Shown: positions 56,372 to 62,325 of the stretch, piece after piece | Position numbering within the stretch: position 1 is the stretch's first letter | Layout of the letters: the number at the start of each line of letters is the position of its first letter | NCBI GenBank assembly: GCA_023898465.1 | Contig: CP060223.1 | Location: 864,001 to 928,000 of the forward strand | Reading direction: 5' to 3' | Length of the DNA stretch: 64,000 nt | From: Candidatus Nomurabacteria bacterium | Lineage (GTDB): Bacteria > Patescibacteriota > Patescibacteriia > HK-STAS-PATE-3 | Made by a program: the position numbers and the translations under genes | The notes under the pieces: generated by a model | The model's input: the letters and a program-made list of their open reading frames with translations, nothing else | Told to the model about the DNA's origin: nothing | The model's database searches: none

Positions 56372-56388
56372 TATATCTGCGCGGGTGG

Positions 56389-56474
56389 CGGAATGGTATA
56401 CGCGCTAGCTTGAGGTGCTAGTGGCCGCAAGGCCTTGGAGGTTCAAGTCCTCTCCCGCGCACCACGTGAAGCGT
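56389..56474 (+). tRNA. tRNA-Leu (anticodon GAG), CCA encoded
   Basis: Acceptor gcgcggg/cccgcgc, loop uuGAGgu, long variable arm. Confidence 0.75.
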
Positions 56475-56575
56475 GGTGCTAAATAGCTGAGCAAAATTAG
56501 ACATACCACCGTAGCAAAAGCTGCGTTGCTTTTAAATTGGATAGACTCTTCACTGCTTAAACTCAAATGGTCTTC

Positions 56576-56797
56576 TCAGATGAGTATTAGCAAAACACAC
56601 ACAAGAATTTGCCCTAGGAGAAGTCCTGCACCAACCTGACGACGACCATCAATAATCCGTGCAAATCCAAGTGCAAAGAAAACTATAAAACCGCCTGATA
56701 CAAAAACTAAACTAGCAGGCGCTTGCATGAGCGCTATGTTCCATGCAAAAAACTGATAGAGAAAACTGAGAACGCAAAAAATTATTACTTTTTTCAT
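56576..56797 (-). CDS. Small two-TM membrane protein (73 aa)
   Basis: Hydrophobicity only. Confidence 0.3.
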   Translation of the reverse strand: MKKVIIFCVLSFLYQFFAWNIALMQAPASLVFVSGGFIVFFALGFARIIDGRRQVGAGLLLGQILVCVLLILI

Positions 56798-56923
56798 AAA
56801 AGGAAATGGACATCGTATTTGTATATATTTAATCGCACGCCTAGCTCTTTTGTTTCATGAAAGCTCGCTGTATTAATTCCAAAATCATGCTACTATGCTA
56901 GCAAGTAATTTTACTCTACCTCT

Positions 56924-57163
56924 ATGAAAAAAATTCTCGCTACCTTTTCATTCATACTTTTAGCCAGTCCATCCATTGCCTCAGCCCACACTGGCGTAGA
57001 ACACACAGGGACTTTTTGGCATATTTTTCTCCACCTGCTTAGCGAACCAGATCACATCTTCATAATAGGATCTATCGTTATCCTGGGTTATGGCGTACTG
57101 CTTCATACGAAACCACAGAGGAGTTTATCTCGTGTTCCACGTGGAAGCATTGCTAAGTATTGA
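56924..57163 (+). CDS. Small secreted/membrane protein (79 aa) with His-rich motif
   Basis: Signal peptide MKKILATFSFILLASPSIASA, HTGVEHTGTFWH, then a TM segment. Confidence 0.3.
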   Translation: MKKILATFSFILLASPSIASAHTGVEHTGTFWHIFLHLLSEPDHIFIIGSIVILGYGVLLHTKPQRSLSRVPRGSIAKY

Positions 57164-57203
57164 CTTCCCTAGGCTAATCGCGTAATAATCAGGCCTGTCC
57201 CAT

Positions 57204-57280
57204 GGGCGGTTAGCTCAGTTGGTTAGAGCGCCTCGTTTACACCGAGGAGGTCGGGGGTTCGACTCCCTCACCGCCCACCA
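57204..57280 (+). tRNA. tRNA-Val (anticodon TAC), CCA encoded
   Basis: Anticodon stem cctcg/cgagg, loop uuUACac. Confidence 0.8.
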
Positions 57281-57355
57281 CACTTAGCGTGGCCGACCAT
57301 ACAAACCATGGCTAGTAATTGAGGACGCGCTCTATAGATGTAAGTAGTGACTTTT

Positions 57356-57364
57356 TGCTATACT
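57356..57364 (+). promoter_or_regulatory. Extended -10 (TGcTATACT) upstream of ugd
   Basis: Located 32 nt upstream of the ATG at 57396. Confidence 0.35.
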
Positions 57365-57395
57365 CATCAGGTACTAACTCCTAACTTTTTATTTC

Positions 57396-58682
57396 ATGAA
57401 AATATCTGTAATTGGCGCCACCGGCTACGTCGGTCTCGTCTCAGCAACCTGCCTTGCCGAAATTGGCCATACGGTAACTTGTTTTGGTAGAAACGCAGAA
57501 GCGATAAATAAATTACAGCGTGGCAATATTCCTATTTATGAACCCGGCTTGAACGAACTAGTCAAAAAGAATATAAAGGCAAAGCGTCTTCGCTTCACCA
57601 CGAATTTTGATCTAGCAGTAAAAGAAAGTCTCGCAATCTTTATTGCCGTAGGAACACCTCCGCTACCAAACGGTAAAGCAGACCTACGCGCCGTATTTGA
57701 AGTTGCACAACGTATCGGGCAAAGCATGACCGACTATAAGGTTATTGTTGATAAAAGCACTGTGCCAGTTGGAACGGGCCAAGAGGTGAAGCACATTATT
57801 GCAAAGGAATACTCAGGAAGATTTGATGTTGCTTCATGTCCAGAATTTTTGCGCGAGGGTTCAGCTATTGAAGACTTCATGCATCCAGATCGAGTGGTTA
57901 TTGGTACTGATTCTGAAAAAGCAAAAAGGGTTATGCTTGATATTTTCAAACCCCAGAAGACTACTAAGCTCACTACAAATATTGAAAGTGCCGAACTTAT
58001 TAAGTATGCTTCCAATGCTTTCTTGGCCACCAAAATTTCATTTATCAATGAGATATCCAACCTTTGCGATTTAGTCCGGGCTGATGTTGAGGAAGTCGCT
58101 CGAGGTATGGGCCTAGATAAGCGTATTGGACAAAGTTTCTTAAAGGCTGGAGTGGGATACGGCGGCAGCTGTTTCCCTAAGGATGTGAGTGCCTTAAAAG
58201 AACTTGCGGGATCTAGTGGCTATGACTTTCAGTTACTTAAGGCTGTCATTGAGGTAAACAATACACAACGATCAGTCGTCATTGCAAAAGCAAAACAACT
58301 ACTTGGTTCCTTGCGGAACAAACACATCGGCGTACTTGGACTGGCTTTTAAGCAAAATACTGATGATGTACGGGAGTCTGCTGCCATAGACATTATTAAA
58401 CTGCTGCAAAAGGCTGGTGCAAAAATTACTGCTTTTGACCCAGTGGCTACAGAAAAAGCAAAAAGTAAGCTTACTCGCGTAAAGTATGCCAAGTCAGCCA
58501 AGGAAGCATGTAAGCAGACTGATCTCCTTGTCATTGTGACTGAGTGGCCTGAATTCGCTCAGCTTGATTGGAAAAAAATCCGTCCAACTATGAGACAAGC
58601 AAAAATTGTTGATGGACGTAACCTGCTTGATCCAATAAAGATGCGAGAGTTGGGGTATCAATATCTCAGCGTAGGTCGATAG
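57396..58682 (+). CDS. ugd: Nucleotide-sugar dehydrogenase (UDP-glucose 6-dehydrogenase family)
   Basis: N-terminal Rossmann fold MKISVIGATGYVGLVSA. Catalytic GGSCFPKD. Confidence 0.85.
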   Translation: MKISVIGATGYVGLVSATCLAEIGHTVTCFGRNAEAINKLQRGNIPIYEPGLNELVKKNIKAKRLRFTTNFDLAVKESLAIFIAVGTPPLPNGKADLRAVFEVAQRIGQSMTDYKVIVDKSTVPVGTGQEVKHIIAKEYSGRFDVASCPEFLREGSAIEDFMHPDRVVIGTDSEKAKRVMLDIFKPQKTTKLTTNIESAELIKYASNAFLATKISFINEISNLCDLVRADVEEVARGMGLDKRIGQSFLKAGVGYGGSCFPKDVSALKELAGSSGYDFQLLKAVIEVNNTQRSVVIAKAKQLLGSLRNKHIGVLGLAFKQNTDDVRESAAIDIIKLLQKAGAKITAFDPVATEKAKSKLTRVKYAKSAKEACKQTDLLVIVTEWPEFAQLDWKKIRPTMRQAKIVDGRNLLDPIKMRELGYQYLSVGR

Positions 58683-58744
58683 TAAAAACCCTGCCACTTC
58701 ACTCAAAGAGATAAAGAGACAGGGTTTCAACAGATCACAACTGC

Positions 58745-58960
58745 CTACGCAGTTGATTTGTCGTCGGCGACTTCGTCGCCACTGCTCACGATCTTAGGCT
58801 CATCCATCTTCTGCACCAGCTTTGGCCTGGGCTTTGGCACATACGCCGGAAACTCCCTCTTGCCACGACGATTGGCTATCAGCATAGCGCCGAGCACAAT
58901 CGCTCCTGCCCCCAGGATCGCCAAGAAGAAAAGTACCGGGTTCTGAAGTAGAGACGACAT
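58745..58960 (-). CDS. Small single-TM protein (71 aa)
   Basis: Hydrophobic N-terminus. No family recognised. Confidence 0.3.
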   Translation of the reverse strand: MSSLLQNPVLFFLAILGAGAIVLGAMLIANRRGKREFPAYVPKPRPKLVQKMDEPKIVSSGDEVADDKSTA

Positions 58961-59073
58961 GATTCCTCCTCACCTCGATTGTTAACCCCCGCATTTACTC
59001 TAGCCTAAAACGACTTTGCTCCTACGTCAAATACCCGCTGCCGACGGGCTATGAAAAATGCAGCAAAGCAATT

Positions 59074-59241
59074 TTAGCGTTTATCTTTTAAGCGCCCTCG
59101 TTTCTTCAACGCTTCACGGAGCACCCACTCGATTTGACCATTCAGGCTGCGCAATTCATCACTAGCCCACCTTTCGAGTGCCTCTAGGGTTGTGCTATCA
59201 ACACGGAGCAAAAATGGCTTTGTCCTCCTTTGTACCGCCAT
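59074..59241 (-). CDS. Arc/MetJ-type ribbon-helix-helix DNA-binding protein (55 aa), not in ORF track
   Basis: Manual translation gives MAVQRRTKPFLLRVDSTTLEALERWASDELRSLNGQIEWVLREALKKRGRLKDKR. AAGGAGG lies 8 nt upstream. The ATG sits 2 nt after the SPFH stop codon. Confidence 0.5.
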   Translation of the reverse strand: MAVQRRTKPFLLRVDSTTLEALERWASDELRSLNGQIEWVLREALKKRGRLKDKR

Positions 59242-59243
59242 GC

Positions 59244-60113
59244 TTATTGGTACAAGCTTCCGGTATTCACCACCGGTTGCGCATGACGATCACTGCAAAG
59301 CACAACCAAGAGATTGCTCACCATGGCAGCCTTTCGCTCCTCATCTAATTTTACAACGTCTTTTTTTGAAAGCTCTTCAAGCGCCATCTCTACCATGCCC
59401 ACCGCACCTTCAACTATTCTCGTTCGGGCGGCTACCACCGCACTTGCCTGCTGGCGCTGGAGCATTGCACTGGCAATCTCTGGTGCATAAGCTAAGTGAC
59501 TAATTCGCGCTTCAATAACCTCAACACCTGCTTTTGCCAAACGGTCCTGCACTTCAGCTTTTAGTTTTTCAGCTACGTCATTTGTGTTCCCACGCAATGA
59601 GACCACACCTTCTTGATGAGCGTCATAGGGATATGAGGTAGCCATGTTACGGAGAGCAGCTTCGCTCTGTACATGGACAAAATTTTCATAGTCATCAACA
59701 TTGAACATTGCCTCAGCAGTATCGACAACCTTCCAAACTATGACTGCAGCAATCTCGATGGGGTTACCATCAGAATCATTTACTTTTAACTTTCCGCTTT
59801 CAAAGTTTCGTATGCGAAGAGAAATTCTTCGTCGACTTGTAAAAGGATTCATCCAACGAAAGCCTGACTGTTTTTCTGAACCTATATACTTACCAAACAA
59901 CTGCGCAACTGCAGCCTCATTTGGATTTACAATAAAAAAACCACTTGTACAAAAAAGAACAGCTATCCCTAGGAGTATGGAAACAATTACTAGCCAGATG
60001 GTATTCGCAGTTGCGGCATAAATAAAACCAAACGCCGCCAGACACAAGAGCACAAATAAGGAAGGAGCAGCAACAAAGCCATTAGTCGAACGAACAGCTT
60101 TTTCTTTAATCAT
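59244..60113 (-). CDS. SPFH/band-7 (stomatin/HflC-like) domain membrane protein
   Basis: N-terminal [18 protein letters not shown]...[11 protein letters not shown] core. Confidence 0.8.
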
Positions 60114-60174
60114 AGTAAAAAGGTAAATGATATCAAACTGATATCAGTGAACCTCTTATCTGTACATTTGTCAA

Positions 60175-60205
60175 GTTAAAAAAAACTACTACGCAGATGT
60201 AGTAT
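60175..60205 (-). terminator. Rho-independent terminator downstream of tRNA-Ala(TGC)
   Basis: Minus strand: tactac-atctgc-gtagta followed by gTTTTTTT. Confidence 0.5.
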
Positions 60206-60262
60206 GTTTTCTCTGGTGGACCCTACCCCGCTGGGCGGGGTCAGCTCTGTATGTTGAGATCT

Positions 60263-60338
60263 TGGTGGACCCTACCGGGCTCGAACCGGTCACCTCCGCG
60301 TTGCAAACGCGGCGCTCTACCAAATGAGCTAAGGGCCC
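60263..60338 (-). tRNA. tRNA-Ala (anticodon TGC), CCA encoded, G3:U70 present
   Basis: Loop uuUGCaa. Acceptor gggccct/agggtcc with a G3·U70 wobble. Confidence 0.8.
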
Positions 60339-60626
60339 TTAATTCAGACTATTCGAAACAGGTGAAAAAATATCCCGTAGAAGAGATGGAACAAATCCAG
60401 TCAGTGTAAGAAAAACAATGAAAATCATGAGGATACCGAGAAGCTTTAAAAAAATTCTCGTACCACCCTCGGTACCGAGATGCTGCTCAGCCCATTCGAT
60501 CCGACCAAACCAGTTCATGAAAAAATCAGTCTTGATCACAAGTAGCGCACCTATCAGTATAACGATTCCACCAATTAAATATCGCATAACTCTTCTCGTA
60601 TTATTAACGCCCCCCCCTAGCACCAT
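60339..60626 (-). CDS. Small membrane protein (95 aa)
   Basis: Two TM helices. Confidence 0.35.
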   Translation of the reverse strand: MVLGGGVNNTRRVMRYLIGGIVILIGALLVIKTDFFMNWFGRIEWAEQHLGTEGGTRIFLKLLGILMIFIVFLTLTGFVPSLLRDIFSPVSNSLN

Positions 60627-60730
60627 CGAGTACTTGAGCTTGAAAAGCTAAGTACGAGATGAAAAGCGGCACGTTTGCAAAGGGCGCAGTCCGGCTTGGC
60701 CGGGCAAAGCCTGGAGCAAACGATGACGTG

Positions 60731-60807
60731 TGGTGGGCGATCCAGGAATCGAACCTGGGACCTCGTCATTATCAGTGACGCGCTCTAACCAACTGAGCTA
60801 ATCGCCC
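60731..60807 (-). tRNA. tRNA-Ile (anticodon GAT), CCA encoded
   Basis: Loop cuGAUaa. Acceptor gggcgat/atcgccc. Confidence 0.8.
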
Positions 60808-60854
60808 ATGTTTGTTCCCCGTGGAACATGATGTAAAACTACATAACAACGCGG

Positions 60855-60940
60855 TGGTGCCGCCGGTCGGACTTGAACCGACATGAGGTTACCCTCAAGG
60901 GATTTTAAGTCCCTCGTGTCTACCATTCCACCACGGCGGC
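60855..60940 (-). tRNA. tRNA-Leu (anticodon TAA), CCA encoded
   Basis: Loop cuUAAaa. Long variable arm. Confidence 0.75.
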
Positions 60941-61043
60941 AAGCATTCAAAGCGAATACATGCCATATTTCAACACAAGAATGTCATTCATGCAAGACCA
61001 GCAGGAACCACATGCTAACACGAGTATTTCGGAAAAACAAGAC

Positions 61044-61721
61044 TTACTCGGGTTTATTAAACTCAATCTGCGAAGTAGACTCTTTGCTTCTGCGACTTTT
61101 AATAAACTCCCAGAGGGCGGGCAATAATGAAATAGCAATGATAGCAACTACGACAAAACTAAAATTCTCCTGGATAAAAGGAAGCCTGCCAAAAAAATAT
61201 CCTCCGAACAAGAAAATGCTGACCCAGAGGAATGCTCCAAGCACATTATAAGTGAAAAAGTGACGATATCGCATTAAGCCAACACCTGCAACAAAGGGAG
61301 CTATGGTACGAACAATTGGAACAAATCTCGCAATGACAATTGTCTTTGCTCCATACCTTTCATAAAAACGATGGGTACGGTCAAGATGCTCCTTCCTTAG
61401 CCAACGAGAATTTCTCAACTCATATACTCTTCGACCAAGGTGCTTCCCTATCCAATAGTTTAATCCATCGCCTAACACAGCCGCAGTAAACAGCAAGGCA
61501 AAGAGAAGTATAATATTTAGTGACCCTGCATCAGACAGCGCTCCAGCGGCAAAAAGAAGCGAATCCCCTGGCAAGAAGGGCATAATCACAATGCCCGTCT
61601 CAAGGAAGACAATACCAAAAAGAAGCGCATAGACCCAGGTGCCGTATGTGCTTATAGCTATTCCAAGGCTTTCATCTAAGTGGAGAAAGTATTGAGAAAT
61701 AGTGTGTAATAGCTCGTTCAA
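61044..61721 (-). CDS. DedA/SNARE-associated family membrane protein
   Basis: VYALLFGIVFLETGIVIMPFLPGDSLLFAAGAL core motif. Confidence 0.8.
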   Translation of the reverse strand: MNELLHTISQYFLHLDESLGIAISTYGTWVYALLFGIVFLETGIVIMPFLPGDSLLFAAGALSDAGSLNIILLFALLFTAAVLGDGLNYWIGKHLGRRVYELRNSRWLRKEHLDRTHRFYERYGAKTIVIARFVPIVRTIAPFVAGVGLMRYRHFFTYNVLGAFLWVSIFLFGGYFFGRLPFIQENFSFVVVAIIAISLLPALWEFIKSRRSKESTSQIEFNKPE

Positions 61722-61820
61722 CTTGAATTAGATAATTGTTTCAGTATTTAGTCAAAATGTTATTTTATTTTTTTTGGCTAACTTTAGTGAGGCGATGTTC
61801 CTCGAGGAACTTTTTAATTG

Positions 61821-61895
61821 TGGTGGACCAGAGGGGAGTTGAACCCCTGACCCCTGCAATGCGAATGCAGTGCTCTACCACTGAGCTACTGGCCC
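61821..61895 (-). tRNA. tRNA-Ala (anticodon CGC), CCA encoded, G3:U70
   Basis: Loop uuCGCau. Confidence 0.8.
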
Positions 61896-61945
61896 TAGTG
61901 TGTTCCTCGTGGAACAAACGGATGGGAGGCCTAAATTATCTAACG

Positions 61946-62021
61946 TGGTGGACCCTACCGGGCTCGAACCGGTCACCTCTTCCATGCCATGGAAGCGCTC
62001 TACCAAATGAGCTAAGGGCCC
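61946..62021 (-). tRNA. tRNA-Ala (anticodon GGC), CCA encoded
   Basis: Identical to Ala(TGC) outside the anticodon arm. Loop auGGCau. Confidence 0.75.
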
Positions 62022-62073
62022 ATGTGAACTACGGATATTTTAAGCTTCTTTTCTCCGTACCTGCCTCAGCCTT

Positions 62074-62145
62074 TGCCCCCACCATGAATCGAACATGGAT
62101 CCAGGGCTTAGGAGTCCCTTGTTCTATCCTTTGAACTATGGGGGC
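62074..62145 (-). tRNA. tRNA-Arg (anticodon CCT); CCA not encoded
   Basis: Acceptor gccccca/tgggggc. Loop cuCCUaa. There is an A31·G39 mismatch at the base of the anticodon stem. Confidence 0.65.
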
Positions 62146-62325
62146 AGGGGCGGCGGCAGGCAATTTTCTTTTACCCGAGATTTTGTAACTTTTGTAAAAA
62201 GTTATTTTTTTGCTAGCCTTTGCAAAAAATAAGCGTCGTAGAATATTATGTTAAAAATGCATCTAAGTTACGAGCCATTATTACACCAAGTGGCCATTTT
62301 CGCAATGCCTAAAGAGCCAGATCGA

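Follow-up and report, generated by a model that had tools for sequence, protein, structure and literature searches.

A conserved pairing of an SPFH gene with an Arc-like ribbon-helix-helix gene beneath a tandem palindrome suggests an autoregulated membrane-scaffold operon

The Arc repressor of phage P22, a ribbon-helix-helix (RHH) protein, binds DNA as two dimers on subsites 11 bp apart. What the bacterial SPFH (stomatin/flotillin-like) proteins do is a long-standing question, and most of their subfamilies are without a known partner or inducing condition. A 2009 survey of prokaryotic SPFH operons assigned NfeD partners to subfamilies 1, 2 and 5 and found the other subgroups to be without recognisable conserved neighbours (PMC2636767), nor does a study of Pseudomonas from 2026 report such a partner (PMC13086221). 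Here we analyse a stretch of 64,000 nucleotides from a Candidatus Nomurabacteria genome (GenBank assembly GCA_023898465.1, contig CP060223.1, positions 864,001 to 928,000; hereafter the window), in which an SPFH/Band-7 gene is followed by a 55-aa Arc-type RHH gene and preceded by two copies of the palindrome TGATATCA (Table 1). Together with its relatives in other phyla, the locus makes it likely, on the strength of its sequence, that an Arc-like RHH repressor binds phased operators over the promoter and negatively autoregulates the SPFH-RHH operon.

The 55-aa reading frame and its start just behind the SPFH gene, both put forward in the initial annotation of this DNA, hold up: SPFH ends in a TAA at 59246..59244, and after two nucleotides (59243-59242) the RHH ATG lies at 59241. 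The product is predicted to have a beta-strand (K8-PFLLRVD-15), helix A (residues 16-25), helix B (28-47)—these helices being the segments already named in the initial annotation—and an Arc-like C-terminal GR. It matches Pfam Arc (PF03869) with 20.6 bits against a gathering threshold of 20.4, residues 8-53 aligning to positions 5-50 of the 50-position model. When a family profile made from the window protein and 22 homologues was searched against all solved structures, the best solved relative was P22 Arc (1u9p at 4e-6, 1arq at 4.5e-3; Arc chains from 4e-6 to 5e-3), and the residues identical to P22 Arc in the alignment are F10, L12, R13, the R31-S32-x-N34 that begins helix B and the C-terminal K-K-x-G-R. 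The reading frame is far from a chance occurrence, its family counting 1606 representatives of 50%-identity clusters at E<=1e-10 and its gene order being conserved. Across phyla its members share 60-80% identity and an invariant R-S-L-N-G-x-I-E, and over the 140 related loci introduced below the beta-strand follows the pattern K-[PAS]-[FY]-[LAP]-L-R-[IVLM]-[DSN], with L12 and R13 invariant. Conservation ends with G49-R50, which corresponds to the C-terminus of Arc, and what follows differs among homologues in both length and sequence.

Table 1. Coordinates, within the window, of the SPFH-RHH pair, its candidate control elements and nearby features
Feature	Position	Strand	Evidence or remark
SPFH/Band-7 gene, 289 aa	59244..60113	minus	Pfam PF01145 (Band_7), E=1.4e-31
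Arc-family RHH gene, 55 aa	59074..59241	minus	Pfam Arc, family profile, AlphaFold, conserved pairing
Candidate operator site 1, perfect palindrome TGATATCA	60139..60146	both strands	sequence, exact-copy search
Candidate operator site 2, perfect palindrome TGATATCA	60128..60135	both strands	14 nt upstream of the SPFH ATG
TTGACA, -35-like element of the pair	60169..60174	minus	sequence; TTGAC(A) conserved in related loci
Candidate -10, TTCACT	60146..60151	minus	17 nt after TTGACA; last base is the first base of site 1
Terminator-like hairpin UACUAC-AUCUGC-GUAGUA with U8 tract	60178..60204	minus	RNA fold; downstream of tRNA-Ala, before the SPFH promoter
tRNA-Ala	60263..60338		
Hairpin GCCCGU-CGGCA-GCGGGU, then AUUU	59033..59049	minus	25 nt after the RHH stop; z=-2.05
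71-aa transmembrane open reading frame	58745..58960	minus	one N-terminal transmembrane helix, charged tail; called by both public gene callers

The pairing of the two genes, which the initial annotation had called unusual, appears indeed to be undescribed but is common in nature. Searching genomes at one per species with a single RHH-family peptide pattern, we obtained at least 595 species genomes with a confirmed match and retrieved 80 loci, every one of which (80/80) has an SPFH homologue, 52-75% identical, directly upstream of the RHH gene on the same strand. Sampling in the other direction, through SPFH, gave an RHH gene downstream in 68 of the 72 metagenome contigs with enough 3' sequence. 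The gap from SPFH stop to RHH start has a median of 12 nt and is no longer than 20 nt in 103 of 153 cases. We confirmed the pair in twelve phyla—Patescibacteria, Acidobacteriota, Gemmatimonadota, Planctomycetota, Myxococcota, Pseudomonadota, Eisenbacteria, Zixibacteria, Chloroflexota, Deinococcota, Bacillota and Bacteroidota—and the same architecture is present in the cultured species Deinococcus geothermalis, Bacillus thuringiensis and Parabacteroides distasonis. IMG/VR yielded only three matches. A third conserved gene was not found on clustering the open reading frames (ORFs) of the 80 loci: nothing besides SPFH occurs in more than 13 of them, the second-largest cluster consists of spurious antisense ORFs over SPFH in high-GC genomes, and the ORF downstream of RHH varies between loci, as do the neighbouring genes, which are housekeeping genes.

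Conservation of the linkage in relatives and an inverted-repeat operator upstream of SPFH were the two features that the initial annotation had proposed to look for, and the second is present as well. Within the window, exact TGATATCA occurs twice, both times at the SPFH promoter, in the arrangement TGATATCA-gtt-TGATATCA (60128-60146), which places the two centres 11 bp apart between TTGACA and the SPFH start codon. This pair is the sole tandem match in the window even with three mismatches allowed; with no further operator-like tandem sites in the 64 kb, no local regulon beyond the operon is visible. Among 74 genome loci, 67 carry exact TGATATCA within 150 nt upstream of SPFH, and the octamer occurs 68 times in 11.1 kb of upstream DNA vs. 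6 times in the other 825 kb, three of these six being operators at loci with misplaced gene starts. Pooling both samples (RHH-sampled genomes and SPFH-sampled contigs) and the three cultured species gives 140 related loci, of which 126 have the exact TGATATCA core and 136 have an 11-bp tandem pair with at most 3 of 16 mismatches upstream of SPFH. When the loci are aligned on the central site, degenerate copies appear exactly 11 bp to either side of it (-11 and +11), and G2 and C7 are the best-kept bases; across the related loci there are often three sites rather than two. The cultured species illustrate the range, with TGATATAA-aag-TGATATCA-ttt-TTATATCA in B. thuringiensis, TGATGTCA-atg-TGATATCA in D. 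geothermalis and, in P. distasonis (L168, upstream of WP_211744627), the variant TAATATCA-aat-TAATATCA, in which G2 has become A in both sites. The P. distasonis RHH protein has the strand KSFILRVD and a helix B that begins RSTNGQIQ, and it is possible that the Bacteroidota operator and its reader changed together.

Motif and RHH gene are also lost together. The motif is absent from all four RHH-less SPFH relatives with adequate flanks, namely the metagenome contigs L147 and L151, Listeria L169 and Enterococcus L170. Three further loci (L117, L129 and L163) have a small ORF with several transmembrane (TM) segments after SPFH instead of RHH, and keep the tandem operator upstream; they lie on short contigs that end soon after the TM ORF, and the RHH gene may therefore come third in a longer operon, beyond the TM ORF.

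Several records fall outside the common pattern. On two IMG/VR contigs (L164 and L165) the module is more distant, with 45% identity for SPFH and 42% for RHH, and has two exact TGATATCA sites. The Listeria and Enterococcus loci just mentioned, from 'UNVERIFIED_ORG' phage records, encode an SPFH relative that is 47-51% identical and has a different C-terminus, with neither RHH nor operator; they may be host DNA rather than phage. The Gemmatimonadaceae metagenome-assembled genome MFD04944.bin.2.100 (L059 and L080) holds two SPFH-RHH modules on separate contigs, each with a TGATATCA operator of its own, and the two RHH repressors could cross-regulate.

RHH operators classically have this geometry, with a palindrome recurring at every helical turn across a core promoter, which suggests that RHH dimers bind TGATATCA and occlude the promoter, and the autoregulator role that the initial annotation had offered as one alternative fits a conserved operator on the pair's own promoter. 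In the mechanism we propose, the RHH gene would be co-transcribed with the SPFH gene and translated just after it, and RHH dimers would bind the 8-bp palindrome. To judge from Q9/N11/R13 of Arc, the probable reader of the symmetric G/C at motif positions 2 and 7 is Arg13, invariant in each beta-strand, a role that would fit the weaker sites, in which no bases are better conserved than G2 and C7. With their spacing of 11 bp, the sites may allow neighbouring dimers to cooperate along a single face of the double helix, as the P22 Arc tetramer does on its operator. The sites appear to cover the core promoter—in the window they begin where the -10 ends and stop 14 nt short of the ATG—and for that reason bound repressor would block RNA polymerase and produce negative autoregulation, holding SPFH output in proportion to repressor output.

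The placement of the sites within the promoter also bears on whether the RHH protein might bind them and yet activate the operon, or regulate it both ways with positive feedback. In related loci TTGAC(A) lies about 20 nt upstream of the central site, with TTGAC at -20..-16, and in most phyla the central TGATATCA(t/c) coincides with a TGn-extended -10, 17 nt after the -35. The window layout is shifted relative to this, with TTCACT as the candidate -10 and the TGaTATCAT of site 2 as an alternative, and the Patescibacteria relative L001 has the same layout as the window, TTGACA-16-TATGAT followed by the operator. A consensus promoter scan additionally proposed TTGATA-16-TATGAT overlapping the SPFH start codon, which we rejected for its implausible position in favour of TTGACA-17-TTCACT or the TGaTATCAT of site 2. 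Some RHH regulators, such as AmrZ, do both activate and repress, and with so weak a -10 candidate in the window the help of an activator is conceivable. The sites, however, fall on the -35/-10 spacer, on the -10 and on the start region, and not ahead of the -35, and in most phyla the central site forms a good extended -10 with a consensus -35, i.e., a promoter needing no activator, so that we consider activation improbable.

Repression by an Arc-like protein has points standing against it, both at the promoter and in the protein. We infer binding, repression and the transcription start alike from sequence, and the same holds for the RHH protein as the one that binds the motif and for whatever relieves the repression. 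The central motif resembles an extended -10, so part of its conservation could reflect promoter function; promoter assignment in the window is ambiguous, TTCACT being a weak -10, and the unlikely ATG-overlapping promoter from the consensus scan adds to this ambiguity. As for the protein, its Pfam Arc score is barely at threshold for a single sequence. Its AlphaFold monomer (extended N-terminus, helices at 16-25 and 28-47, predicted local distance difference test score (pLDDT) 74) is without a formed beta-strand, which would be expected only in the dimer, and a Foldseek search of this model against the PDB gave one meaningless match, a result that is uninformative for a 55-aa fold because that fold exists only as a dimer. 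Positions 9 (P/A/S) and 11 (L/A/P), which are predicted to face the DNA, are unusually apolar, and R13 is the sole obvious reader. Finally, L087, L125 and L148 have an RHH gene and no recognisable site.

For the SPFH product, NCBI has a 100% identical entry, named 'SPFH domain-containing protein', in a metagenome-assembled genome of Candidatus Nomurabacteria, in keeping with the origin of the window from a Patescibacteria (CPR) genome. Its AlphaFold model consists of an N-terminal hydrophobic two-helix membrane hairpin (residues 12-36 and 39-58), an SPFH domain (59-209), a 40-residue helix (211-250), a second helix (258-273) and a disordered tail, and in the family alignment this C-terminal tail is conserved, with PVVNTG(S/T)LYQ as its final residues. 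Foldseek gave human stomatin as the top match (5e-15), followed by HflK, prohibitin and QmcA among others, with a probability of 1.0 to the cage-forming proteins stomatin, HflK/C, prohibitin, QmcA, erlin and flotillin. Sequence and fold alike identify an SPFH domain, and the model adds the membrane anchor at the N-terminus and the helical region at the C-terminus that are characteristic of the SPFH/Band 7 family. The subfamily is very uniform, mostly 289 aa long and with 65-71% identity among the top matches, and at least 8000 SPFH homologues were returned by the search. Because the N-terminus is basic and followed by the hairpin, the positive-inside rule suggests a cytoplasmic location for the SPFH domain. 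Neither protein of the pair, SPFH or RHH, had a specific match in PADLOC or NCBIfam, which leaves a defence-system reading unsupported. We also considered recent horizontal transfer of the pair, and a composition test gave no signal for it (GC content 44% for SPFH and 49% for RHH vs. 47% for the window).

This orientation matters for a different reading of the pair, according to which the RHH protein is mainly a protein partner of the SPFH assembly, occupying a place like that of NfeD, while TGATATCA belongs to the promoter or is bound by another factor. A dedicated partner, NfeD, is typical of SPFH operons (PMC2636767). No NfeD is present at this locus: the flanking ORFs (RHH, the 71-aa TM ORF and a 95-aa ORF at 60339..60626) are without a match to NfeD models. 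The conservation across phyla is moreover unusual, at 52-75% identity for SPFH and 60-80% for RHH, and a cytoplasm-facing SPFH domain, as predicted from the model, would make contact possible. We nevertheless regard a mainly partnering role as very improbable, since nearly all conserved RHH residues are Arc core or DNA-backbone positions with no obvious extra surface, since palindromes recurring at 11-bp intervals mark an RHH operator and not an RNA-polymerase element, and since the motif is lost together with RHH. Apparent SPFH-RHH fusions, which might have been taken as a sign of interaction, are frameshift artefacts: P0376 and P0266 are frameshifted read-throughs, and the other long matches are mis-called extensions.

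The initial annotation had further suggested that the RHH protein could be an antitoxin whose toxin is the small TM protein encoded by the 71-aa ORF. More broadly, the locus might be a toxin-antitoxin or abortive-infection module in which RHH neutralises a membrane toxin, either this TM protein or SPFH itself. RHH proteins are common antitoxins that repress their own operon, some toxin-antitoxin families place the toxin gene first, and NCBI attaches antitoxin names to homologues of this very protein, with 'HicB family antitoxin' in B. thuringiensis and 'type II toxin-antitoxin system antitoxin' in Planctomycetota. The 71-aa TM ORF, however, matches no family, tblastn against 163 related loci found no homologue of it (best E=0.97), and it has a promoter-like TTGACG-N17-TAGAGT and a strong ribosome-binding site (GAGGAGGaatcATG) of its own; its GC content is 56%, with 0.67 GC at third codon positions vs. 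about 0.37 in its neighbours. No conserved adjacent toxin takes its place, as the only conserved neighbour, SPFH, matches no toxin or defence model, including those of PADLOC, and has the fold of an ordinary stomatin/HflK-type scaffold. Nor does the RHH protein have a toxin-binding region or extension, its conserved part stopping after the Arc-like GR with variable tails beyond, while the housekeeping neighbours that vary by locus and the mere three IMG/VR matches also speak against a defence module. The pairing with the 71-aa protein accordingly falls away, and a toxin-antitoxin or abortive-infection role in any form seems to us extremely improbable.

The RHH gene is poorly annotated. Of two public gene calls, one omits it and the other gives a 45-aa version that starts at a TTG. 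The strong ribosome-binding site with which the initial annotation had credited the gene does not precede it: AAGGAGG (59230..59224) lies within the ORF, in codons 4-6, where it encodes R-R, 12 nt before the in-frame TTG at 59211, and only GGAAG is found before the ATG, 15 nt away. This internal AAGGAGG and TTG have probably misled gene callers, hence the poor annotation. Homologues conserve the residues that a TTG start would remove (M/V-A-E-R-K-P-F..., consensus M-A-E-R-K-P-F-L-L-R-V-D, F10 being nearly invariant and located in the beta-strand), which makes the ATG at 59241 the likelier true start, with translation predicted to be coupled to SPFH termination. The AAGGAGG/TTG element (59209..59230, minus strand) might be a coincidence, or it might drive a truncated isoform without half of the beta-strand. 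Names given to homologues are inconsistent, ranging from 'hypothetical protein' (D. geothermalis DGEO_RS00280) through 'HicB family antitoxin' (B. thuringiensis WP_001085171) and 'Arc family DNA-binding protein' (P. distasonis WP_005854106) to the Planctomycetota antitoxin name quoted above. We rejected a HicB identity, as the protein is a 55-aa RHH only, the window protein has no HicB match and there is no HicA-like neighbour.

If the RHH protein is an autorepressor, what might relieve it? The protein is too small to carry a ligand-binding domain in addition to the RHH fold. Our working guess is that the circuit simply keeps the dosage of a cage-forming membrane protein constant, and that the SPFH assembly itself may modulate this homeostasis. 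A more ambitious and, in our estimate, doubtful version puts the repressor under the control of the SPFH assembly or a protease: the cytoplasm-facing assembly would capture the RHH protein, release it or expose it to proteolysis depending on the state of the membrane, and the two genes with the TGATATCA operator would amount to a minimal membrane-state sensor and feedback circuit. Such feedback, if true, would provide the first transcriptional read-out of what a bacterial SPFH scaffold senses, in a circuit conserved in at least twelve phyla, genome-reduced Patescibacteria among them.

Around the pair, the terminator-like hairpin with its U8 tract sits directly before the SPFH promoter, and if it functions as such, SPFH and RHH would form a transcription unit of their own. 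The 88-nt spacer that contains it (60175-60262, minus strand) folds at -30 kcal/mol, with z=-4.7 vs. shuffled versions. The hairpin downstream of RHH is a weak candidate for the operon terminator and was not called by a simple terminator scan. Directly after tRNA-Ala and before the U-tract hairpin lies a further GC-rich hairpin, GACCCCGCCCAGCGGGGUAGGGUC (60206..60245, minus strand), which could be a tRNA 3'-processing or termination element. The surroundings are also rich in tRNA genes, 8 of the window's 11 lying in a 6-kb stretch around the module (56379..62146: Leu, Val, Ala-UGC, Ile, Leu, Ala-CGC, Ala-GGC and Arg-CCU), with the three Ala isoacceptors all on the minus strand.

A search of the full-text literature, whose coverage leaves subscription journals outside, returned no description of the SPFH-RHH pair or of the TGATATCA operator. 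Both components, an Arc-like autorepressor and an SPFH scaffold, belong to familiar types; what appears to be new is that they are combined, how widely they are, and that a near-invariant operator goes with them. A large and highly conserved SPFH subfamily is hereby linked to a dedicated, proposed repressor and an almost invariant operator, and thereby becomes experimentally tractable, with hosts of the module in culture in the Bacillus cereus group, D. geothermalis and P. distasonis. An operator that is identical across Patescibacteria, Bacillota and Acidobacteriota represents an unusual joint conservation of a regulator and its binding site. For annotation, the lesson is that a gene this small is missed or truncated by some gene callers and that its homologues are named inconsistently.

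Compared with described systems, the locus borrows features from several. Like the SPFH-NfeD operons (QmcA-YbbJ, YqiK-YqiJ, FloT/YuaG-YuaF and PH1511-PH1510), it pairs an SPFH gene, in an operon of two genes, with a single small partner that is dedicated to it and conserved with it (PMC2636767), and its SPFH fold matches QmcA, stomatin and HflK, but the partner here is a soluble DNA-binding protein and not a membrane NfeD. With RHH type II antitoxins (CopG/RelB/ParD-like, and the C-terminal RHH of HicB) it shares a predicted RHH fold, the small size, some of the database names and, as proposed here, autoregulation via promoter-overlapping repeats, while it has no toxin-family neighbour, toxin-binding extension, HicB N-terminal domain or HicA. 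The Psp circuit (PspA-PspF) offers a functional analogy only, in that an oligomeric membrane scaffold is encoded with the regulator of its own operon, which is the logic of the speculative feedback model; there is no relation in sequence or fold, PspF is an activator restrained by PspA, and contact between scaffold and regulator is only speculative in our case. P22 Arc, encoded with Mnt in the immI region, differs in being a phage immunity gene, where the RHH gene described here is chromosomal and pan-bacterial, and in its half-site sequence, its two rather than often three sites and its Gln/Asn at residues 9/11, which are apolar here (P/A/S and L/A/P); a membrane scaffold, moreover, is co-regulated in the present operon. 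What the two have in common is nearly the same length (53 vs. 55 aa), a beta-alpha-alpha layout, predicted in our case, and, as we propose for the SPFH-RHH pair, operator subsites 11 bp apart that overlap the promoter, with two dimers on one DNA face, and repression of their own transcript.

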